Under the pieces are notes generated by a model. That model did not search any database. It was not told the DNA's origin and was given only the letters and a program-made list of their open reading frames with translations. The translations under genes were made by a program, and so were the position numbers. From Escherichia phage vB_EcoS_IME347, in the sequence record MH051918: a stretch of 50,048 nt of DNA; one strand, given 5' to 3'. Below, one piece after another: positions 1,861 to 49,794 of this stretch. Within the stretch, counting starts at the first letter, position 1, and every line of letters begins with the position of its first letter.

Positions 1861-2053
1861 GATGAAATGTGTGCGGTCAACCTACGCGCTGTTTTCGGCT
1901 GGTGAGGTTTACGACTTCAAACGGGCTGGTGAGGCCGGGCGCTTCACGGTGTACGAGTACGAGCGCGAGGGCGCACTGTATCGCTTCGGTCTTGATGATG
2001 CCGGAGCTAACGAAACTGACGGTAATTTTATGCAATTCGAAGAGGTGAAATAA
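1853..2053 (+). CDS. hypothetical early protein (about 66 aa)
   Basis: ORF in track (1832..2053); first in-frame ATG at 1853. Confidence 0.4.
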   Translation: MIKMKCVRSTYALFSAGEVYDFKRAGEAGRFTVYEYEREGALYRFGLDDAGANETDGNFMQFEEVK

Positions 2054-4167: not shown

Positions 4168-4355
4168 TGGAGCGTTTAAGCTACTGGCAGATACTGGATA
4201 AGGCCGGGCGACTGCGCGAGCAGCTTCGCGGGCTACCGGATAATGACCGAATGGAAATAATCGGTCGGGCGTTGCTGGATCTGGTTCACGGCGACGTGAC
4301 CTATCACTCATGCGGCAACGCACAATGGAACCTGACCTTTGAGGTGAAGAAATGA
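4161..4355 (+). CDS. hypothetical early protein (64 aa)
   Basis: Overlapping start; ORF in track. Confidence 0.45.
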   Translation: MVMERLSYWQILDKAGRLREQLRGLPDNDRMEIIGRALLDLVHGDVTYHSCGNAQWNLTFEVKK

Positions 4356-4654
4356 ACAACTTGCACGAACTGAAGATTTTCCCGCGCCACTTCTACGGCG
4401 TGAAGATGGGGCAGAAGAAAGCAGAATTCAGGGTTGACGATCGCGGATTCAAAACTGGCGACACGCTCCGCCTTCGCGAATGGCACGAGGGCGACTTTAC
4501 CGGGCGGGAAATCAGCGTTGTGGTGACTGACGTAACCGACGTGACCGAGTTCATCAATCGGGCGAACGCCGAACTGTACAACGGGAACCGCTTCGTAATG
4601 CTGTCGTTCTTCGTGGTTCACGCGAGCCTTTGCGATATCCCGTACATCCGATAG
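4352..4654 (+). CDS. ASCH-like (DUF3850-type) small protein (100 aa)
   Basis: N-terminal pattern HELKIFP..F..V..G.K..E.R..DR.F..GD.L.L.E...TGRE resembles the DUF3850/ASCH fold; judged by eye only. Confidence 0.45.
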   Translation: MNNLHELKIFPRHFYGVKMGQKKAEFRVDDRGFKTGDTLRLREWHEGDFTGREISVVVTDVTDVTEFINRANAELYNGNRFVMLSFFVVHASLCDIPYIR

Positions 4655-4702
4655 CACGAATTGCTAAAACAATAATCCGGGGCTATGCCATAATAGCCCC
4701 AC
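4650..4702 (+). promoter_or_regulatory. intergenic motif module (GATAGCACGAATTGCTAAAA + hairpin + CATAAT)
   Basis: Motif overlaps stop TAG; inverted repeat ggggctatg..catagcccc with TGCCATAAT-like element inside. Confidence 0.5.
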
Positions 4703-4725
4703 ACCAAACGAAAGAGGAAGTAGAT

Positions 4726-5106
4726 ATGAAATTCAAATGCACAACCGACACAACGAAGAAATTCACTCCGGGCAAAGTCTACGAGACTTCGGCGAGCAAC
4801 GCACTTCACAACGTGGCTATCCGTGACGACTCCGGGCGGACTCGCGTATTTCGTGTAACTCATAACGGCGAAGGTATTCGCTGGAATGTCGGCGGCAATA
4901 AGTCTGCGGTTATGAAAAAGCTTCATCCTACCTTCCGCATCGACGAGTTGGGTACTGTCCATATCAGCGACGGCGAAGTAACCCGAGTCAAGATCGGCGG
5001 TTGGTGCGAGACTGCGGAATCTAAGCGCGAACGAATCACGAAAATCGCTATCGCGGCAACTCTGGTGCTGGTGAGTGTGGCTGTATTCGTGGCGAATCAC
5101 TTCTGA
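4726..5106 (+). CDS. hypothetical protein with C-terminal transmembrane helix (126 aa)
   Basis: RBS AGAGGAAG then ATG at 4726; C-terminal hydrophobic segment IAIAATLVLVSVAVFVANHF; N-terminal MKFKCT...FTPGKVYE motif is shared with three other small ORFs. Confidence 0.5.
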   Translation: MKFKCTTDTTKKFTPGKVYETSASNALHNVAIRDDSGRTRVFRVTHNGEGIRWNVGGNKSAVMKKLHPTFRIDELGTVHISDGEVTRVKIGGWCETAESKRERITKIAIAATLVLVSVAVFVANHF

Positions 5107-5154
5107 TTTAAAAGGGGAATCTCTCTGAGCGGTTCCCCATAACAAGGAATTCAA

Positions 5155-5280
5155 ATGGTAGACGTGAATCACTGGAATGAACCGCCAAAGCATGACGTTC
5201 TGTTTTGGTTTCTCGGGTTGCTGATAACGCTCGTTATCATCTTGAAAGGCGTGATGGTGGCGGAATGGATTCTGACCTGA
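5155..5280 (+). CDS. possible small membrane peptide (41 aa)
   Basis: AAGGAA RBS about 7 nt before ATG at 5155; hydrophobic core; overlaps the start of the next ORF in another frame; speculative. Confidence 0.2.
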   Translation: MVDVNHWNEPPKHDVLFWFLGLLITLVIILKGVMVAEWILT

Positions 5281-5474
5281 TTAACTACGAAGATGCAGCG
5301 CGTGACGCTATCGATGGTATGCTGCCAAATTCGAAGCGTGTGGCTCACTATCGCGGTTTTAAGGGTTCACCTGTTAAACTGTATTGCGAGATTTTGAAGC
5401 TCTCAGAAGTCGATACAGCGCGTTTAGAGGCATACGATTTTAAGCGTTTTTCGATAACCATCGAAACCAAATAG
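5265..5474 (+). CDS. hypothetical early protein (69 aa)
   Basis: In-frame ATG at 5265 within track ORF 5205..5474. Confidence 0.4.
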   Translation: MDSDLINYEDAARDAIDGMLPNSKRVAHYRGFKGSPVKLYCEILKLSEVDTARLEAYDFKRFSITIETK

Positions 5475-5520
5475 CACGAATTGCTAAAAACCTATCAGGG
5501 GAATGCGCTATGATTCCCCT
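5470..5520 (+). promoter_or_regulatory. intergenic motif module (AATAGCACGAATTGCTAAAA + hairpin + TATGAT)
   Basis: Motif overlaps stop TAG; inverted repeat ggggaatgcgc..gattcccc. Confidence 0.5.
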
Positions 5521-5544
5521 ACACCAACAAGCGAGGACGACAAA

Positions 5545-5976
5545 ATGAAACATCTGGTATGCATTGTAGAAGGTTGCGGCCTGGAAGGAATCGGCGGTGA
5601 ACTCGGTCACTACATGATCGCGAAGAATGACCAAGACCGAAGCGGCGACGTTGAGATAACCTCCCGCCACGCACTCCCTTACATCATGGAGACTCTCGGT
5701 GATGGAATGTATCAGGGTTATGGCTCCAGCGCTATTTACAAGCAATACCCGATCCGCAAGCGTCTGGTTCGCGCATTCTTTAAGTACGCGCATCACGATT
5801 GCAAGCTTTCACGCAATGCGGCGAAAAGTTGGGCGCGAGCTATGGCTGACGGATATTTCTTCCGTGATGGTCAGGCGATCAGCGAAATGATTCAGACAAT
5901 CATGATCGACTATGACGGCGATTTCGGTCAAGAGTCATTCGATAGCTACGTTGCCGACGAGATCTCTTACTGGTAA
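5545..5976 (+). CDS. hypothetical early protein (143 aa)
   Basis: ATG at 5545 after GAGGACGA; ORF in track. Confidence 0.5.
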   Translation: MKHLVCIVEGCGLEGIGGELGHYMIAKNDQDRSGDVEITSRHALPYIMETLGDGMYQGYGSSAIYKQYPIRKRLVRAFFKYAHHDCKLSRNAAKSWARAMADGYFFRDGQAISEMIQTIMIDYDGDFGQESFDSYVADEISYW

Positions 5977-6026
5977 ATAGCACGAATTGCTAAAACTTGC
6001 TCAGGGGCATTTGTTATAGTGTCCCT
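5976..6026 (+). promoter_or_regulatory. intergenic motif module (AATAGCACGAATTGCTAAAA + hairpin with TGTTATAGT)
   Basis: Motif after stop TAA; inverted repeat ggggca..gtccc around TGTTATAGT. Confidence 0.5.
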
Positions 6027-6059
6027 CGTTGAGTTAAGCAACCAATAAAGGAAAAAGCG

Positions 6060-6590
6060 ATGATTATCAACGCATACGGTAAAGAGTTTCACACAAACGC
6101 GCCTTCCGGCCTTGTCTGTATTTTCGACTACGACGGGACGCTTTCGGACGGTTCGCACCGACTTCACCTCCTGCCGAAGAAGGATTTACACCTCACTGAA
6201 AGCTGGAGCGAATTCAACCTTGCATCGGTGGACGACGCCCCGATCGAATCAACTATCAAGGTAATGAATGCGATGTATGCAGCCGGGCATTGTGTCATTA
6301 TTTTGACCGGACGCAGCGATGAAGTTGAAGCGGAATCCCGAGTTTGGTTAGATCGTCACGGCGCGAAGTATGACTTCATGATCATGCGTCGCCACGACGA
6401 CAACCGCAAAGACACGGTTATCAAAGAGGAAGTTCTCCGCGAGATCGGGTTGGAGCGAATCCTCGCGGCTTGGGACGATAGCCCTTCAGTTATTCCACAC
6501 TTTAGGAATATTGGAATAACTACATATGCCGTAACTGACTACGGCGACAACGTTCACGATCACCTTAAATCACACGGAGTAGAAAAATAA
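6060..6590 (+). CDS. HAD-superfamily phosphatase-like protein (176 aa)
   Basis: HAD motif I DxDGT present as FDYDGTLSDGS near the N-terminus; the start of the next ORF overlaps its stop. Confidence 0.55.
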   Translation: MIINAYGKEFHTNAPSGLVCIFDYDGTLSDGSHRLHLLPKKDLHLTESWSEFNLASVDDAPIESTIKVMNAMYAAGHCVIILTGRSDEVEAESRVWLDRHGAKYDFMIMRRHDDNRKDTVIKEEVLREIGLERILAAWDDSPSVIPHFRNIGITTYAVTDYGDNVHDHLKSHGVEK

Positions 6591-7174
6591 TGAGCAAAGT
6601 AATCATTCTCAACGCGCCGCCAGCATGTGGCAAAGACACGATAGGTTCAATCATCGCGGATATGAATCAGATTTATGGCGTTCGCATGTTGAGCTTCAAA
6701 GCGCCGATGTTCGAGATCGCCCGAGCTATCCTCGGTGATGCGAACTTTGATTATTTCATGTTCCTTTATAACGATCGGCTCCATAAGGAAAAGCCCGATT
6801 CCATTCTGAACGGTAAAAGCCCGCGCGAGTTCATGATCTGGATTAGCGAGGCAATCATTAAGCCAGAATTCGGCAATGATTATTTCGGGCGTCGAATGGT
6901 TGAGGCTGTCAAGTCAGGCACTGCCCCGGCGATTATCACGGACGGCGGATTCACTGAAGAGACAATCGCACTAATTGAAGCTGGTATTCAGGTTCACGTC
7001 TGCCGACTGCACCGCGACGGATTCACGTTTGAAGGCGACTCGCGAAACTATCTTCACCTGCCTGTGGGCTGGCAAGGCGTAAACGGCTACACCGAAGAAG
7101 ATTTCCAGTTACGTGACGGTGATCCTGATTACACTGCCAGCGTGATTACCGGGAAATACCTGCGTCACTTCTAA
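6590..7174 (+). CDS. P-loop kinase, deoxynucleoside-monophosphate-kinase-like (194 aa)
   Basis: N-terminal IILNAPPACGKDT resembles the GKDT P-loop of phage dNMP kinases (T4 gp1 type); identified by eye, not by search. Confidence 0.5.
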   Translation: MSKVIILNAPPACGKDTIGSIIADMNQIYGVRMLSFKAPMFEIARAILGDANFDYFMFLYNDRLHKEKPDSILNGKSPREFMIWISEAIIKPEFGNDYFGRRMVEAVKSGTAPAIITDGGFTEETIALIEAGIQVHVCRLHRDGFTFEGDSRNYLHLPVGWQGVNGYTEEDFQLRDGDPDYTASVITGKYLRHF

Positions 7175-7224
7175 TAGCACGAATTGCTAAAAACTCGGCG
7201 GGGTAAGCTGTTATAGTTACCCCA
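7174..7224 (+). promoter_or_regulatory. intergenic motif module (AATAGCACGAATTGCTAAAA + hairpin with TGTTATAGT)
   Basis: Motif overlaps stop TAA at 7172-7174; inverted repeat ggggtaagctg..agttacccc. Confidence 0.5.
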
Positions 7225-7253
7225 TCGAAAACAACCAATCAGAGGAAACGCGA

Positions 7254-7439
7254 ATGATGCAAGTCACCAGCTACACCCAATCGACAGCCGAAGCAATCAG
7301 CGAACTTCGAAAGGTTGCCGACGCGCTGGAGAAAGGCGAGGCTATGCTTTATAGCGGATCAGTTACCAACACCAAGCGTTACGGCGAAGCCCGTGAATAC
7401 GCTATCGAAATCACAGTAGTCACCGATAAGGAGATGTAA
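7254..7439 (+). CDS. hypothetical early protein (61 aa)
   Basis: RBS CAGAGGAAA; ORF in track. Confidence 0.45.
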   Translation: MMQVTSYTQSTAEAISELRKVADALEKGEAMLYSGSVTNTKRYGEAREYAIEITVVTDKEM

Positions 7440-7441
7440 AA

Positions 7442-7645
7442 ATGAGCAACACAATCAAACTTCGCACGACTCACGCCGATTGCCCTTGGATTACTCCGGG
7501 CAAGATTTACGAGGCCGAATTGGTTGCGAAAGATGGATTTGACGGACTGTATCGGCTGAAGAATCCAGACTTCGGAGAGGTGCTCACTGCAATTGAGAAC
7601 TCCTGTCATTTGGGCGGGGAAAGTTGGGAAGTAGTCACCGAATAG
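7442..7645 (+). CDS. hypothetical early protein (67 aa)
   Basis: Closely follows the previous ORF; contains the ITPGKIYE motif shared with ORF 4726. Confidence 0.45.
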   Translation: MSNTIKLRTTHADCPWITPGKIYEAELVAKDGFDGLYRLKNPDFGEVLTAIENSCHLGGESWEVVTE

Positions 7646-7692
7646 CACGAATTGCTAAAAGTTCCGCAAGGGCATTTGATAGAATGCCCTTA
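7641..7692 (+). promoter_or_regulatory. intergenic motif module (AATAGCACGAATTGCTAAAA + hairpin with TGATAGAAT)
   Basis: Motif overlaps stop TAG; inverted repeat caagggca..tgccctt enclosing TGATAGAAT. Confidence 0.5.
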
Positions 7693-7718: not shown

Positions 7719-7928
7719 ATGAAACCAGCAATTTTCGAAGCACGTCGCACTTATGGCGCAATCCTCTCCGGGATTCAGTACGAAGTAATGAGCAGTGAGG
7801 ATGGTTACTATATTCAGGTGGACGACGACGGCACTTGCTACGAGGTTATTTTCGACAAGTACGATCCCGATGTTTGCATGTTGAAACATGCGCAGTTAAT
7901 CCGATTCGATCGAGTGGAGGAAGCATAA
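7719..7928 (+). CDS. hypothetical early protein (69 aa)
   Basis: RBS AAAGGAAA; ORF in track. Confidence 0.45.
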   Translation: MKPAIFEARRTYGAILSGIQYEVMSSEDGYYIQVDDDGTCYEVIFDKYDPDVCMLKHAQLIRFDRVEEA

Positions 7929-8409: not shown

Positions 8410-8640
8410 ATGTTTGGTTTAAGTGAAGCGCATTACAATATTGTCAAACGTGCGGCGCGCGGTCTGAACGACGCAATCAGCGAACTACCGAAGGCCGATC
8501 GAAAGAAGGAGCAAATCGTCATTAAGGTGATCGATAAGCATTACGAACCAGTTGCGACACTGATTAACCGGATGCGCTTCGTTTGGGTGGCGGGCTATCT
8601 CGCCGGGCGCGTAGGAAACAAAAATGGGGACTACGAATAA
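8410..8640 (+). CDS. hypothetical early protein (76 aa)
   Basis: In-frame ATG at 8410 within track ORF. Confidence 0.45.
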   Translation: MFGLSEAHYNIVKRAARGLNDAISELPKADRKKEQIVIKVIDKHYEPVATLINRMRFVWVAGYLAGRVGNKNGDYE

Positions 8641-8834
8641 TGATCGGGAAAGTGGATTGGGTGAAGTGCGAACGGGCATATCACGAAAGCGGGTTCACGG
8701 CGGGTTGCGAATATCAGGTTCTGAAGTTCGATTCCCGGCTCGGAGTCATGACGATCCAGAATGAGCGCGGCGAGCGTTGCTTGGTGAGTCACCCTCACGA
8801 CATAAATTACGGAGAGTTTCGAATTATCGATTGA
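8640..8834 (+). CDS. hypothetical early protein (64 aa)
   Basis: TAATG overlap with the upstream ORF. Confidence 0.45.
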   Translation: MIGKVDWVKCERAYHESGFTAGCEYQVLKFDSRLGVMTIQNERGERCLVSHPHDINYGEFRIID

Positions 8835-14987: not shown

Positions 14988-15464
14988 ATGGCAATTGCAG
15001 CAAGCTATCAGAAAGATATGTCTATCGCCGTTCCGGGTATGGTGGCAGACACCTCCCGTTACAACATCGACGGCGCTTGCGTACTGAGCGGTGACGTTGA
15101 TATCCTCGTCGGCGTTGCGGTTCAGGTTGACAACGTTCAGGCCGTTGACGGTCACAAAGTCATGAAGCCTATGGCATCCGGCGGCAAGGCTTATGGTGTG
15201 GCGATTCGCTCCCACTTCCAGACTAAAGGCAAAGATGGTCAGATGTACTATGAAGCGGGCGGCGGCATTAACGTAATGACCTCCGGGCGCGTTTGGGTTA
15301 TCTCCAAAGATTCCACCGCTCCGGCGTTTGGTGAAACTGTCAACTTTGACGTTGACGGACAGCAGAAAGCAGACGGCGCGATCGAAACCGCATGGACTTA
15401 TGCGGGCGGCTTCACTACCTATCAGGATTTGAAGCTGGTTGAAATCCAATTGCATCAACTGTAA
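14988..15464 (+). CDS. capsid-associated protein, paralog 1 (decoration/cement-like, putative)
   Basis: RBS AAGGAG; shares YNIDGACV..GVAVQV..YGV..RS..GRVWV motifs with the next ORF. Confidence 0.5.
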   Translation: MAIAASYQKDMSIAVPGMVADTSRYNIDGACVLSGDVDILVGVAVQVDNVQAVDGHKVMKPMASGGKAYGVAIRSHFQTKGKDGQMYYEAGGGINVMTSGRVWVISKDSTAPAFGETVNFDVDGQQKADGAIETAWTYAGGFTTYQDLKLVEIQLHQL

Positions 15465-15522: not shown

Positions 15523-16017
15523 ATGTCTGATTATGGTAATTTGTCTTTGGGGGTTAGCTGTCCCGGCCTCCTGTCCGATACGTCGGACTATAATATCGAC
15601 GGCGCTTGTGTGGCTCGTGGGGAAATTCCTTTTGGTGTCGCTGTTCAGGTTGTCGAGATCGTGGATGGTGTCAAGGTTGTCTCCGCGCTGAGTGACGGCA
15701 AGCCGTATGGTGTGTCGATGCGATCGCAATACGAAAACTTGTCGGGCGTGGTTCAGGACGGCGAACCTGTGAGCGTTATCTCTCATGGTCGAGTTTGGGT
15801 TCGCACCTCTCTGGAGGATTCGCCCGCTTTCGGTGAGAAGTTATCCTTCGAATCTGGCGGAGAAGTATCTGAGGCCGGGGAGGCTGGCTGGCCTTTCGCT
15901 GGAGGTTTCGTTAAGTTTGGTGAGGGCTGGATTGTAGAGGTTCAGGTTTTGCAAAACCGATACTACATCCCACCTGAGCCGGAACCTGAACCAGAACAAG
16001 ACCCGGAAGAGCCGTAG
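15523..16017 (+). CDS. capsid-associated protein, paralog 2, with Pro/Glu-rich C-terminus ending at an amber codon
   Basis: Paralogous to 14988..15464; the C-terminal PEPEPEPEQDPEEP is followed by TAG and then 20 further in-frame Pro/Glu-rich codons up to TAA at 16078-16080. Confidence 0.5.
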   Translation: MSDYGNLSLGVSCPGLLSDTSDYNIDGACVARGEIPFGVAVQVVEIVDGVKVVSALSDGKPYGVSMRSQYENLSGVVQDGEPVSVISHGRVWVRTSLEDSPAFGEKLSFESGGEVSEAGEAGWPFAGGFVKFGEGWIVEVQVLQNRYYIPPEPEPEPEQDPEEP

Positions 16018-42877: not shown

Positions 42878-42896
42878 ATAGCACAAATAGCTAAAG
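42876..42896 (+). promoter_or_regulatory. intergenic motif copy (AAATAGCACAAATAGCTAAAG) with hairpin + TTATAGT
   Basis: Motif overlaps stop TAA; followed by inverted repeat ggggtaacg..gttacccc. Confidence 0.45.
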
Positions 42897-42951
42897 ACAA
42901 ATCAGGGGTAACGAGTTATAGTTACCCCACACAAACAAAGGAGATTTAGCA

Positions 42952-43059
42952 ATGAAAGAGTTCATCTTGAAAACTGTAATCCCATTCGTTGCCGGAGCAG
43001 CAGTAACGGGCTTCTTTATTTGGGTTTTGTCTTTGGCTGGAGACTTCAACGGTTTCTGA
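42952..43059 (+). CDS. small membrane peptide (35 aa)
   Basis: AAGGAG RBS; hydrophobic translation MKEFILKTVIPFVAGAAVTGFFIWVLSLAGDFNGF; below track cutoff. Confidence 0.25.
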   Translation: MKEFILKTVIPFVAGAAVTGFFIWVLSLAGDFNGF

Positions 43060-43069
43060 GGAAAAATAA

Positions 43070-43246
43070 ATGACTCGTGTAAAGTGCATTCGCAATGATT
43101 CCAAATCGCTCCCGTTCCAAGTGAACCAGATCTACTCTGTGGGCTACCATCACGGCGGCGGGATTTACGAGATCTACGACGGGCAAGGCTCTGCAATCCA
43201 AGCGCCTCTGAACGGATTCTATCTCGAATTCATTGCCGTAAAATAA
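43070..43246 (+). CDS. small hypothetical protein (58 aa)
   Basis: ATG at 43070; followed by an intrinsic terminator; N-terminal motif related to ORF 4726 and 7442. Confidence 0.3.
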   Translation: MTRVKCIRNDSKSLPFQVNQIYSVGYHHGGGIYEIYDGQGSAIQAPLNGFYLEFIAVK

Positions 43247-43367: not shown

Positions 43368-43583
43368 ATGAAAGACTTTATTAACGCTGCAATGTCCGGC
43401 ACGGGCGGAGCAACCCTCACGAGTGCGGCAACCGGGCAGTTGATGATCGCCGCGCTGACCTTCGTTTTCTTTATGTCCTTTGGTGTTTGGGGCGCTTACT
43501 GGAAGTACCGAGACAGCAAAGCGATCCGGGAAGCTATCGACGCCGGGGATCTGAAAACAGCAATCTCAATCAGGAATAAATAA
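43368..43583 (+). CDS. holin (pinholin-like, two predicted TMDs)
   Basis: 71 aa; weakly hydrophobic Gly/Ala/Thr-rich TMD1 and hydrophobic TMD2, charged C-terminus; immediately upstream of the endolysin. Confidence 0.55.
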
Positions 43584-43585
43584 TT

Positions 43586-44083
43586 ATGGGCGCAATCAAA
43601 AATACATTGGTTGCGGCTGGCGTTTCTTCTGCGCTTGTCCTCATGCCGCAACTGATCGAGAAGTACGAGGATGTGAAGTTTGAAGTCTACTACGATATCG
43701 CGGGCGTCCCAACTGTATGCGCTGGCATTACCGGGAAAGACGTGATTATCGGCAAGAAGTACACGAAGCGGGAGTGTGACGCTCTGCTCATTAAGCATAT
43801 CAATTATGCTGCGTCGCAGGTTGATAAAGCCGTCACCTATCCGATCCCGGTAACGATGCGGGCGGCGATGTACAGCTTCGCCTACAATGCCGGAACCGGA
43901 GCGTTTCGCAAATCAACCATGCTCAAACTGATTAATAAGGGTGAGCTTAAAGCGGCCTGTAACGAGCTATGGAAGTGGACTTACTTCTATAACCCCAAGA
44001 CAGGCAAGAAAGAGAAATCGCGCGGCCTGAAGAACCGCAGGGCTTCAGAATTTGAATATTGCATGAAGGAGTTGCCGAAATGA
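43586..44083 (+). CDS. SAR-type endolysin (GH24 lysozyme, phage 21 R / P1 Lyz-like)
   Basis: N-terminal signal-anchor-release-like segment; catalytic region [25 protein letters not shown] and downstream [16 protein letters not shown]...WTY resemble SAR lysozymes. Confidence 0.8.
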
Positions 44084-44463
44084 AAAGAACAATCTTAGCT
44101 TGCTGCATTGCATTCGCTATCAGCACAATGACGGGCTGCGCTTTAAATCCGCTGGATGCGCTGACAGGTAAACCCGAAGTATCTGCGCAGGTTGGCGCGG
44201 AGAACGTAAAGCAGGGGATCGGCGTCACAGCAAAGAACGAGCAGAAGAGCGAAACCAACGTGAAGGATTCGCAGATCGGGAAGGTTGACTCCTCCACCAA
44301 GAAAACGGAGAGCATTAAGGCGGGAACCATTCAGGCCGAACGCATCGAAGTAAACAATGGTGGCGGTTGGGACTATTTCGGATTCGGCTTTATCGTGGCG
44401 TGGGTACTGGCGGCGCTGTTAGTGTGGGCTGTGGAATACCGGAAAAAACACAAGGAGGCTTAG
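44080..44463 (+). CDS. unimolecular spanin (lipoprotein signal + C-terminal TMD)
   Basis: ATGA overlap with the endolysin; lipobox-like MTGC near the N-terminus and C-terminal [23 protein letters not shown], as in the T1 gp11-type u-spanin. Confidence 0.6.
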
Positions 44464-45003: not shown

Positions 45004-46566
45004 TTACATTAAGCGCGGATTGATATAAATGTTGTCGTCCACACGGCAAACGTAATTCATGCTTTCCAGCGTTTCCAGCAACGTTTCGATACGCTCCGCA
45101 ACCTTTTGCTGCCCGTTAAACGGAGTGACGTTCCGGCACTTCGCGATCACGCTCTGAATCTGCGCCCGGCCTTTGTTCTTTTTGGCGATCTCACTAACCA
45201 CGTCGATAAGCTTGCGTGATTCAGCTTCATCACCTGCGAAACCTGCGGCGTTTGCAGACGAGAGATAAGTTTTTGACAACTCGTTAAACGTCATGATCGC
45301 TTCCTGCATTGTGTCCAAGTCGATCTCACGATTCGCCCGGTTCGGCTTCTCACCAGCCCAATTCTTGATCGTGTGAATCACGGACGCGATACGAATTACG
45401 TGTTTATCGAATTTCCCCAAGTGACCGCGCAACATGGAGTGTGAGTATTTCCCGCCCGCCGCGAAGCTGGCTTCCATATCCTGACGAGCAAGGTTCAGCG
45501 CTCGGGTTGCGTGAAGGCTCAGGCTGAAAACTACCTTCTCTTCGTTCATGACGTTATGAACGAGGCGGTAATATTTGCTCACGAGCGCCTTGTCAACTGG
45601 CTTGTAAACTGCGTCGCCGTTCTCGTCACACAATACGCGAGTACCCAAACGAGGCTCTTCGCGAACCAGTAAGAAACGCTCGGAAACACCGATACCGCGC
45701 TGACCTGCATCCATGATGCCCTTGATTGTTTCGTCCTGCGCGATTACGCAAATTGCACCAACCGGACGTAAAGAAAGGTTGTTGTCCTGATTGGATCGAG
45801 CTACTTCCATATGGTTCATATCCCAAGCCTTCAGGATTAGCTCGCTGTTCGACTTCTTATCAGTCCCGCCATACGTCAAACCGAGAAGTGTATTGATTGC
45901 CGTCGCTTCGTCCGAGATAACGGAGAAGTTACCCTGAATCGCCGCAACCTTAGCCAAACCCTCTGGAGTAGGATCGGAAACCGCAAACACAACGTTAGCA
46001 GCCTTTTTGAGCTTCTCTTCGATTTTCTCCTTCTCTTCGTACAGGGCAACCATTGAGTTTCCTTTTACGTCGTTCTTGATCTCCTTTTCGATCTTGCGGA
46101 GTTCCCCGGCGAGGCGTGAACGTTCGGCCTTACGCTTCTCGTTGATGCGGTCAATCTCTGCTCGCATCGGGTTAATGGCTGCGGAGTTGATCGCAGATTT
46201 ACCCGTTGACGGCGGCTGGCTGATTACCATGTAAAGTGCGGTTGGCTGCTCTTCACCGTGATAGTCAACCCAAAAGCGACCGAGCATCGCGGCGGACATA
46301 CATCCGATAAAGTGAGCGTATGCGGACGAAACCGGGAATTGCACTGATTCAGCTTTAGCCTTTGCGTATTCGTAAACGAGGTTATCGCCACCGAGGGAAA
46401 TCAACGGAAAACGATCGTTGCCGCTGTTAATCTCTTCGGGCTTATCCCAAAAAGCAAATGAATCCGAGAAGCCGTTTTCGCGAATAGCGATCGCCACCGG
46501 ATTTACTCCAGTAGCTGCGGCGATTTCTTGGATCTGATTGATGGAAAGTTTATTTTGGAAGAACAT
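45004..46566 (-). CDS. P-loop ATPase, putative replicative helicase/primase-associated (DUF3987-like)
   Basis: Walker A ISQPPSTGKSA and Walker B-like VISDEAT; 520 aa; preceded by a motif module at 46585-46637. Confidence 0.55.
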   Translation of the reverse strand: MFFQNKLSINQIQEIAAATGVNPVAIAIRENGFSDSFAFWDKPEEINSGNDRFPLISLGGDNLVYEYAKAKAESVQFPVSSAYAHFIGCMSAAMLGRFWVDYHGEEQPTALYMVISQPPSTGKSAINSAAINPMRAEIDRINEKRKAERSRLAGELRKIEKEIKNDVKGNSMVALYEEKEKIEEKLKKAANVVFAVSDPTPEGLAKVAAIQGNFSVISDEATAINTLLGLTYGGTDKKSNSELILKAWDMNHMEVARSNQDNNLSLRPVGAICVIAQDETIKGIMDAGQRGIGVSERFLLVREEPRLGTRVLCDENGDAVYKPVDKALVSKYYRLVHNVMNEEKVVFSLSLHATRALNLARQDMEASFAAGGKYSHSMLRGHLGKFDKHVIRIASVIHTIKNWAGEKPNRANREIDLDTMQEAIMTFNELSKTYLSSANAAGFAGDEAESRKLIDVVSEIAKKNKGRAQIQSVIAKCRNVTPFNGQQKVAERIETLLETLESMNYVCRVDDNIYINPRLM

Positions 46567-46619
46567 CGTTTTAACTCCTTATTGGACGGGGTAAATTATA
46601 CCCCGCCCATACTACACGC

Positions 46620-46637
46620 TTTTAGCTATTTGTGCCA
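46620..46637 (-). promoter_or_regulatory. intergenic motif copy (reverse) with hairpin carrying TATAAT
   Basis: On the - strand: TGGCACAAATAGCTAAAA overlapping stop of gene 46642..47058, then stem ggggtataatttacccc. Confidence 0.5.
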
Positions 46638-46641
46638 TTCG

Positions 46642-47058
46642 TTACAAGTATTTCGCTTCGAACGTTGTCCCGTCCGCGATGGAGAATCCCACCTCTTCGC
46701 GGAACAGAGTCCAGCGACATCCTTCGCTATCGAAGATGTACCCGGCGACGCCACCGAGCGCCCGACCACTTTCAACCTGATAGCGCTTGCCTACTTTGAA
46801 GGACTTCTTCATCGGATTCTTGTGATCAAGCCCGGTACACTTCAGGGTTTTCGTTTTCAACTCGGTGAACTTCGCAAAGTGTATTTCATCGACGTTGTGG
46901 ATCTGGAATTCGTCATGCTTTCCGAGCGGGTAAAACTTTCCGTCAGGGTGCTTTACTTCTCGCGTACCGTCGTCATGCTCGCGGCCTTTATACAGGTTGT
47001 TTGTTGTGAATCCGGTAACTGATTCCGCTGAAGTGCATTTCAGTTTGATAGTTTTCAT
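46642..47058 (-). CDS. hypothetical protein (138 aa)
   Basis: RBS AGAAGGAA on the - strand; N-terminal MKTIKLKCT...FTTNNLYKG motif is related to ORF 4726/7442/43070. Confidence 0.5.
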   Translation of the reverse strand: MKTIKLKCTSAESVTGFTTNNLYKGREHDDGTREVKHPDGKFYPLGKHDEFQIHNVDEIHFAKFTELKTKTLKCTGLDHKNPMKKSFKVGKRYQVESGRALGGVAGYIFDSEGCRWTLFREEVGFSIADGTTFEAKYL

Positions 47059-47124
47059 CGATTCATTCCTTCTGATTGGTTATCTTGAATAAGGCCACTA
47101 TATCAAATGGCCTTACGGCAATAT

Positions 47125-49206: not shown

Positions 49207-49437
49207 TTATGCAATGATGAATTTGAAAAGGTCTGCGCCGTAAGCCGTGCGAACAACACAACTCCACGCTGCGCGGCCTTCATGTCCGGAGTCAAGATTA
49301 ACCTGAATCTTAAAGCCAATGCGATCGGTCACGAATACTTTTCCGTCCTCGCGGGTTGCGGTGTACTGATTGCCGGAAACGAAAGCGGCATCACCGAGGG
49401 AGTTAGAAGCAAACACACAAATCATTTTCTTGGTCAT
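49207..49437 (-). CDS. hypothetical protein (76 aa)
   Basis: ORF in track; RBS on the - strand. Confidence 0.45.
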   Translation of the reverse strand: MTKKMICVFASNSLGDAAFVSGNQYTATREDGKVFVTDRIGFKIQVNLDSGHEGRAAWSCVVRTAYGADLFKFIIA

Positions 49438-49515: not shown

Positions 49516-49794
49516 TTAGATAGATTTCTTCGCAACCTTGTATGCTTCCTTGAAAGCCGGAACATCTTCGATTTCAATCCAGAAGCCGGAGCCATAACCA
49601 TCCTCATAGCAAGGGCACTGATCGCAATAGTCGCCCCAAGTTTTCTCAACGCCACCGATAGAAAACCCTGTGGACATTTCGCAAAGCGCTTCCTCTACAG
49701 CTTCGATCTTGTCGGCGTCGTTGTCCATGATTACAAAGTTCCACTTGCCGTTGTATTCAGTACCGAGTTTGATAGATTCGCGCTTGAGTTTCAT
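49516..49794 (-). CDS. hypothetical acidic protein (92 aa)
   Basis: ORF in track; first gene of the leftward array. Confidence 0.45.
   Translation of the reverse strand: MKLKRESIKLGTEYNGKWNFVIMDNDADKIEAVEEALCEMSTGFSIGGVEKTWGDYCDQCPCYEDGYGSGFWIEIEDVPAFKEAYKVAKKSI

Follow-up and report, generated by a model that had tools for sequence, protein, structure and literature searches.

Introduction

The closest described counterpart of the proteins considered here is DUF7244, a 'standalone SH3' protein which Eremina et al. (Int J Mol Sci 2026, PMC13164509), detecting it at E<=1e-5, proposed to be a lysis accessory from its exclusive co-location with the lysis cassette, and which InterPro places in the SH3 clan (PMC13164509). 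Another small SH3-like barrel, Gp54 of phage Bas11, is dispensable to its phage and triggers the defence protein CapRelSJ46, which binds it directly (Zhang et al., Nature 2024, PMC11578894), and in phage T4 the proteins GoF, MotB.1 as well as Frd.2 carry N-terminal domains that are LSm-like, with SH3 topology (Kim et al., CSBJ 2025, PMC12152347). The present work deals with a family of small proteins encoded in a 50,048-nt stretch of Escherichia phage vB_EcoS_IME347 (record MH051918), hereafter the window, which represents a near-complete genome of a T1-like siphophage of the Drexlerviridae close to Sertoctavirus; among annotated phages, SRT8, BrunoManser (Bas12) and IME-JL8 of Sertoctavirus are the closest to it, with a nucleotide identity of ~76-80%. 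An initial annotation of this DNA had grouped four open reading frames (ORFs) by a common N-terminal pattern, here named A (4726..5106, + strand), B (7442..7645, +), C (43070..43246, +) and D (46642..47058, -), and all four are present at these positions with the N-termini that had been described. The count of four copies was too low, as the family in the window comprises eight genes and nine domains, a second copy in D and the genes E, F, G and H having been missed. We hold with high confidence that these ORFs belong to a single superfamily that is ancient and has diverged strongly, its small SH3-like beta-barrel domains measuring 55-65 residues.

Results

Profile relationships among the small proteins

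When Smith-Waterman scores were set against those of 500 shuffles, the pairs A-B, A-Dc, B-Dn, C-Dn and C-Dc (Dn and Dc being the N- and C-terminal halves of D) displayed z values of 3.4-4.8, with an identical register in all five, and the pairs B-C, B-Dc and Dn-Dc did not rise above the shuffles. Since the pairwise scores were marginal, profile comparisons were used, with family alignments built for all 68 window genes of up to 200 residues (aa) from 130 fetched T1-like phage loci. With the A family as the hhsearch query, the six top non-self matches among the 68 families were C, the C-terminal half of D, F (g1832), the N-terminal half of D, B and G (g8583), after which only noise was returned; C was matched with P 1.3e-5 (81%) and the C-terminal half of D with P 2.6e-4. 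The link between A and C is in fact the strongest cross-family link over all 68 queries, the capsid-decoration paralogues excepted, and the F family is likewise linked to the C family (P 7.6e-5).

Relatives outside the window were collected with A3, an A-seeded domain alignment from T1-like phages that was searched against 1.84 billion representatives and recovered 233 proteins at E<=1e-3, many of them tandem arrays of 2-6 copies. The independent hidden Markov models (HMMs) of the window families were then compared at E<0.01 with 149 outside proteins that the A-seeded profile had retrieved, a set containing no orthologue of B, C, D, E or F, and matched 9 (B), 33 (C), 35 (E) and 8 (F) of them, whereas eight control families of the same window had zero matches in this set. 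Two outside proteins connect several families at once: P0110 joins an A-type N-terminus to a B-type C-terminus, and P0012, a protein of four repeats, has matches to 34 PHROGs, among them that of A (5e-12), that of B (2e-7) and that of G (3e-28). Single-sequence searches of a 5.8-billion-protein index gave 6 matches for A and 4 for B, close orthologues only, and with A4 as profile query the matches were all small proteins bearing neither a name nor a Pfam annotation.

SF1, an HMM made solely of outside proteins, was run over the 416 six-frame ORFs of the window and picked eight of them, with E-values of 3e-10 for A and 1.6e-6 for G, both partly circular because relatives of these two genes sat in the seed alignment, 3.6e-6 for D (two domains), 8.5e-5 for E (7719..7928, +), 5e-4 for B, 2e-3 for F, 0.011 for C and 0.085 for H (49207..49437, -). 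The next ORF scored 3.4, which leaves a clean gap between 0.085 and 3.4. In profile-profile comparison by hhsearch, the SF1 probabilities were 97.5% for A, 96.5% for G, 94.7% for C, 78.3% for F, 74.8% for B, 74.5% for E, 70.9% for the C-terminal half of D, 17% for its N-terminal half and 14.6% for H, with every other family at or below 1.1%. H is the ninth match (P 1.9e-3), barely above the onset of noise at P 0.047.

The superfamily consensus is GDKVKCIDSSGGSYLTKGKIYEVIKEDDGRVLVIDDDGDERGYDKSRFELVEE. The shared N-terminal pattern on which the initial annotation had relied exceeds chance, as seen in the z values of the five pairs, the SF1 E-values and the hhsearch probabilities; the alignment, HMM building and search in related phages that it had proposed support the family with a clean gap to noise, and the similarity is not, as it had conceded might be the case, no better than random, for the profile statistics separate the family cleanly from 60 other families and from about 400 decoy ORFs.

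Pfam membership and predicted fold

C is a bona fide member of Pfam DUF7244 (PF23896), which it matches over the full length (1-57 of 57) with 98.9 bits and E 1.6e-28, above the gathering cut-off of 27 bits. D remains below this cut-off, at 19.2 bits (E 1.3e-3) over residues 4-41 in its N-terminal half, and no DUF7244 match was obtained for A, B and E at E<=10 or for F, G and H at E<=1. On these scores A, B, D, E, F, G and H are classed as superfamily relatives and not, by the Pfam rule, as DUF7244 members. Many of the outside relatives found with the A-seeded profile score above two gathering thresholds, that of DUF7244 and that of DUF6501 (PF20111), reaching up to 73 bits on the latter, and since the two matches fall on the same residues, both Pfam families describe one superfamily. 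The DUF7244 threshold is exceeded by the outside proteins that form a bridge between A, B, E and F, and for the window proteins a direct DUF6501 match was not obtained at E<=10. Significant, in-register profile similarity to the DUF7244/DUF6501 superfamily was thus found for A, G, D, E, B, F and C, and for H both measures are weak (E 0.085, 14.6%).

Structure models were made for B and D. The AlphaFold2 model of B has five strands, with a predicted local distance difference test (pLDDT) of 88.3 and a predicted template modelling score of 0.72, and that of D is all-beta, with pLDDT 86-90 in the N-terminal half and ~55-60 in the C-terminal half. The predictions for B and the N-terminal half of D agree with a common fold, for which structure prediction had been proposed as a check, the C-terminal half being modelled at low confidence. 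In Foldseek comparisons with BFVD, the two models have seven of their top-50 targets in common and both match DUF7244 proteins; the D model also matches A-family proteins of phages JMPW1 and SRT8. The predicted structure is that of an SH3-like small beta-barrel, five-stranded and antiparallel with SH3 topology. The N-terminal pattern of the initial annotation can be placed on this fold: beta-strand 1 is h-K-h-K-C, the start of strand 2 is F/L-T-x-G-K-x-Y-E-V, and the long loop between the two strands is the equivalent of the RT loop of SH3.

The member genes

Gene A encodes 126 aa and was confirmed as an ORF with a ribosome-binding site (RBS) and an upstream motif. In its product, the SH3-like domain takes up residues 1-55 (nt 4726-4890) at the N-terminus; the middle part is rich in beta structure, and at the C-terminus there is a hydrophobic helix, ITKIAIAATLVLVSVAVFVANHF, which looks like a tail anchor. 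In other T1-like phages A corresponds to the second half of two-domain proteins of 212 aa (phrog_10580), aligning with profile positions 89-209 of 212. The 67 aa of B are in their entirety a single domain, as are the 58 aa of C. D, with 138 aa, holds two tandem domain copies, the N-terminal one at nt 47058-46855 and the C-terminal one at nt 46854-46645 (residues ~69-138), the second pattern copy reading KTKTLKCTGLDHKN..FKVGKRYQVES, and over 50 T1-like phages show synteny between it and the DUF3987 helicase-like gene that lies downstream (45004-46566 in the window). The additional members are E (69 aa); F (1862..2053, +; ~63 aa), whose ORF is open from 1832 and whose orthologues begin with MKC; and G (8640..8834, +; 64 aa; phrog_4927), whose ORF is open from 8583. 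H (76 aa) is a candidate member only.

A Shine-Dalgarno sequence lies 7-10 nt 5' of the ATG in each of A, B, C and D. These four genes are overlapped by antisense ORFs at 4618-5193 (-), 7379-7648 (-), 42891-43196 (-) and 46528-47022 (+), respectively, each of which exceeds the real gene in length, so that greedy longest-ORF calling prefers them although they oppose the local direction of transcription. Strand-block gene calling was used in its place. The sense ORFs have homologues, Pfam or PHROG families and the correct strand context; homologues of the antisense ORFs were not specifically searched.

C is placed between an exonuclease gene and the holin-endolysin-spanin cassette, immediately upstream of the holin gene. 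Between the promoter-like motif described below and C, just 5' of the holin gene, there is also a 35-codon ORF (42952-43059, +) whose product is one hydrophobic helix, MKEFILKTVIPFVAGAAVTGFFIWVLSLAGDFNGF. Its conservation extends to 5 related loci, in BrunoManser it bears the annotation bas12_0041, and it may code for a small membrane protein belonging to the lysis region.

Genome setting

Genes of the + strand occupy ~0.4 to 29.7 kb and genes of the - strand 44.5 to 50 kb, and because of this strand layout on the circular map the small-gene arrays at ~0.9-9.5 kb and 44.5-50 kb form two divergently transcribed arms. Seven of the eight family genes are found in these two small accessory-gene arrays and the eighth, C, by the lysis cassette. 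The proposal that homologous small-domain genes occur on both arms was correct.

The same arrays contain accessory genes common to T-even phages, namely a full-length DUF5417 member of 92 aa at 49516-49794 (-; 158.8 bits), from the family of the T4 early protein Frd.1, and, immediately 5' of A, a DUF3850 (ASCH-like) gene at 4352-4654 (+; 56.8 bits). Elsewhere in the window, the paralogous neighbours 14988-15464 and 15523-16017 (+), related by hhsearch at 100% over 143 aligned columns, correspond to the capsid decoration protein region of BrunoManser and are a genuine tandem gene duplication, in contrast to the SH3-like family.

A promoter-like motif ahead of most early units

The conserved 18-19-mer ATAGCACGAATTGCTAAA occurs in 25 copies in the window against 0.05 expected and is nearly always oriented with the downstream genes. 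Copies on the + strand lie, for instance, at 969, 1234, 3641, 4651, 5471, 5977, 7174 and 7642, and on the - strand at 47123, 47667 and 49498. The copy at 4651..4668 (+) lies directly upstream of A, that at 7174 heads the unit of B, that at 7642 precedes E, that at 42878 heads the unit of C, and those at 47123 (-) and 49498 (-) precede D and H. A, E, D and H are therefore directly behind a motif copy, B and C are the second genes of their units, and F and G lie deeper in operons. The notion that each of the four original genes sits in a motif-delimited cassette therefore applies only in a loose sense, directly to A and D and to B and C as second genes, the motif with its 25 copies not being specific to the family.

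The motif contains the dyad TAGCA-N5-TGCTA, and in most cases a G+C-rich hairpin comes after it; the hairpin sequence differs from copy to copy, with compensatory changes in the arms. A -10-like hexamer starts at a fixed distance of 22 nt after TTGCTA, followed by the conserved leader CAYCGAAACGAA and an RBS. TTGCTA lies 5 nt too far upstream for a canonical -35 box, and a simple sigma-70 scan of the motif did not call it as a promoter; this geometry resembles that of an activator-dependent (class II) promoter or of a promoter with a structured spacer. ATAGCACGAATTGCTAAA is a promoter-like unit before most early transcription units and not a family-specific element.

Discussion

A possible role as ligand-binding modules

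We tentatively suggest that each copy is a stand-alone or appended ligand-binding module, in which the variable loops of the barrel would bind a specific partner; this would in the likeliest case be a protein of the host or the phage, and for some members perhaps a nucleic acid. By such binding the module would serve host takeover or counter-defence as an adaptor or inhibitor. This idea draws on the general behaviour of SH3-like folds and may well prove wrong. The contexts in which the domain is found differ, with a membrane anchor in A, helicase-like synteny in D, a lysis cassette beside C and, in other T1-like phages, a fusion to the polynucleotide kinase (PNK)/phosphatase, and they fit a reusable targeting module over one fixed function. 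The fusion is seen in two T1-like loci, L127:9962-10687 (+) and L130 (same coordinates), where an HAD_PNKP phosphatase (78 bits) bears a C-terminal SH3-like copy at residues ~188-239, and its architecture suggests that the module can serve as a targeting appendage of a nucleic-acid repair enzyme. Taken as a whole, the explanation made up of the superfamily, the origin of its copies discussed below and the binder module is one that we consider probable.

Gp54 of Bas11 (PDB 9AXB) offers a comparison for such a role. It is small (66 aa), non-essential and, like the window proteins, from a T1-like phage, and it is a small beta-barrel with a long loop between strands 1 and 2 whose nearest structures are SH3, but it has six strands and no sequence relationship to the window families. 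Its family was recovered via the published residue positions, and phmmer found 19 homologues at E<1e-10 in other T1-like loci, e.g. L117:6503-6769 (-) and L128:6819-7085 (-). In the window phmmer detected no Gp54 homologue, and hhsearch gave at most 2.4% to every window family and 0.3% to SF1. As no sequence link was found, Gp54 was rejected as a family member and is retained as a structural analogue or very remote relative.

Alternative functions

Alternatively, the proteins could be nucleic-acid-binding small beta-barrels (Sm/LSm, KOW or Tudor-like) acting on RNA or DNA, which we regard as rather unlikely. The fusion of one copy to a polynucleotide kinase/phosphatase, a nucleic-acid repair enzyme, the synteny of D with a helicase-like gene and the label 'DNA binding protein' on one related PHROG would agree with this, and the T4 proteins provide a parallel, being a multi-copy early family with SH3 topology (PMC12152347). 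The resemblance is that in T4 several dissimilar five-stranded barrels are encoded by non-essential early genes of one lytic coliphage and were found only by deep profile and structure comparison; the T4 domains differ in being larger (82-91 residues) and in being followed by C-terminal domains. SF1 did not match GoF or MotB.1 convincingly (E 0.25 and 0.73), and the match of Frd.2 (E 0.002) is fragmentary and was obtained in a set of 12 proteins. Moreover, Sm motifs are absent, the PHROG label is an annotation only, and the conserved positions of the consensus form the hydrophobic core and not a basic surface.

For C, the one member to which the idea could apply, a role as an SH3b-type peptidoglycan-binding protein assisting lysis is unlikely. 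SH3b domains are common binding modules of endolysins, C shares the SH3-like fold and lies immediately upstream of the holin, endolysin and spanin genes. This position is conserved in 188 of 522 Drexlerviridae (PMC13164509). C is also a full DUF7244 member in length, SH3-like fold and KC...G.xY.V...DD.G pattern, but A, B, D, E, F, G and H fall below the gathering score and lie in accessory arrays or beside the helicase-like gene, 2.6-41 kb from the holin and endolysin genes (43368-44463). Unlike the SH3b modules of Gram-positive phage endolysins, the window genes have no match to Pfam SH3_3, SH3_5 or SH3b at E<=10 and no endolysin fusion, an N-terminal signal peptide is visible in none of the eight sequences, and their relatives are fused to a PNK phosphatase that is cytoplasmic. 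As far as the profile matches go, the dispersed members of the window contradict the published view that each genome has just one copy, linked to lysis, and the lysis-exclusive location reported there is a consequence of the strict HMM cut-off applied (E 1e-5, coverage 0.5).

Origin of the copies

The initial annotation had attributed the copies to cassette duplication, and the idea that they are in-genome paralogues, generated in this phage lineage by duplication of promoter-delimited cassettes, could draw on the several copies that lie directly behind the same promoter-like motif, on the tandem duplication within the gene that is seen in D and the 212-aa relatives of A, and on the higher number of copies in the window (8) than in SRT8 (~5). 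The motif, however, heads most early units whatever their gene content. Pairwise identity among the nine domain copies is 10-35%, which already points away from the window copies forming one clade, and blastn among the eight coding sequences gave a single match of 21 nt, encoding TPGK(V/I)YE in A and B. For every copy, orthologues from other Drexlerviridae are closer (40-85% identical), at least 18 sequence-distinct domain clusters are present across T1-like phage loci, and unrelated phage contigs of 112 kb and 153 kb also carry the domain. Recent cassette duplication was rejected because of this low identity, the lack of further DNA similarity, the orthologues, the clusters and the spread to unrelated phages, and we judge duplication of cassettes in this lineage to be quite unlikely.

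On the sequence comparisons, the copies are anciently diverged rather than recently duplicated, the evident duplication being limited to the intragenic tandems of D and of the 212-aa relatives of A. The present copy number would thus result from retention or acquisition of long-diverged members together with the tandem intragenic duplication in D.

A multi-copy, arrayed organisation is a general habit of the superfamily. In the 112-kb metagenomic phage-like contig (L133:6001-12060), three DUF7244/DUF6501-type genes (257, 219 and 62 aa) stand within 6 kb, surrounded by AAA ATPase, DEAD helicase and GmrSD-like genes, and the outside proteins P0012, P0014, P0015 and P0018 are composed of 4-6 tandem domain copies.

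The idea that short, basic, beta-prone N-termini resemble one another here by coincidence and that no family exists is extremely improbable, for the marginal pairwise scores, the three pairs at shuffle level and the single-sequence searches confined to close orthologues are outweighed by the profile, control and structure tests, which refute it through statistics cleanly separated from noise, eight control families with zero cross-matches, a predicted fold and structural neighbours in common and the bridging sequence P0110.

Points that weigh against the favoured explanation

Several observations tell against the combined explanation given above, or limit it. The SF1 scores of A and G are not independent of the seed alignment, those of the remaining members being independent, and the N-terminal half of D (17%) and H (15%) are weak in the SF1 profile-profile comparison. 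B, D and H are sub-threshold relatives, B being without a direct Pfam match. Sequence searches of the PDB, for which the queries were the B family and two profiles, the A-seeded one and A4, returned noise only (Kelch, Cas6, designed propellers), a solved structure linked to any member not being found in them, and PADLOC found no defence-system match for the members. The cluster names of the domain relatives are all 'hypothetical', apart from one evidently wrong 'IMP cyclohydrolase'. The small accessory-gene arrays are presumably early-expressed, as judged from position only, and the activity of ATAGCACGAATTGCTAAA is likewise deduced from its position. Finally, the putative binder or adaptor mechanism rests on the general behaviour of SH3-like folds and on gene context.

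Significance for T1-like phages

The assignment is a modest extension of a catalogued SH3-clan domain (DUF7244/DUF6501), the members being new and divergent, and the advance is incremental since the domain was already catalogued and no function emerges. Nevertheless, seven hypothetical genes gain a fold and a superfamily assignment, and at least 18 Drexlerviridae gene clusters and more than 30 PHROGs are tied to one superfamily. As the module is spread over the accessory genome, fused to a PNK phosphatase and found beside a helicase-like gene, adjacency to an endolysin is weak evidence for a role in lysis. The members also constitute a candidate set of small, non-essential-looking barrels for screens of host partners, of anti-defence activity and of recognition by defence systems such as CapRel. 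As a speculation more doubtful than the module itself, T1-like and many other lytic phages might keep 3-9 hyper-diverged stand-alone SH3-like barrels as a general binder scaffold, each of which would neutralise or redirect a different host factor or defence, some being sensed by immunity as Gp54 is by CapRel. If this is true, the family would be a major unrecognised reservoir of anti-defence proteins, host-takeover proteins and immune triggers, and the published 'lysis-module SH3' would be just one of its members.

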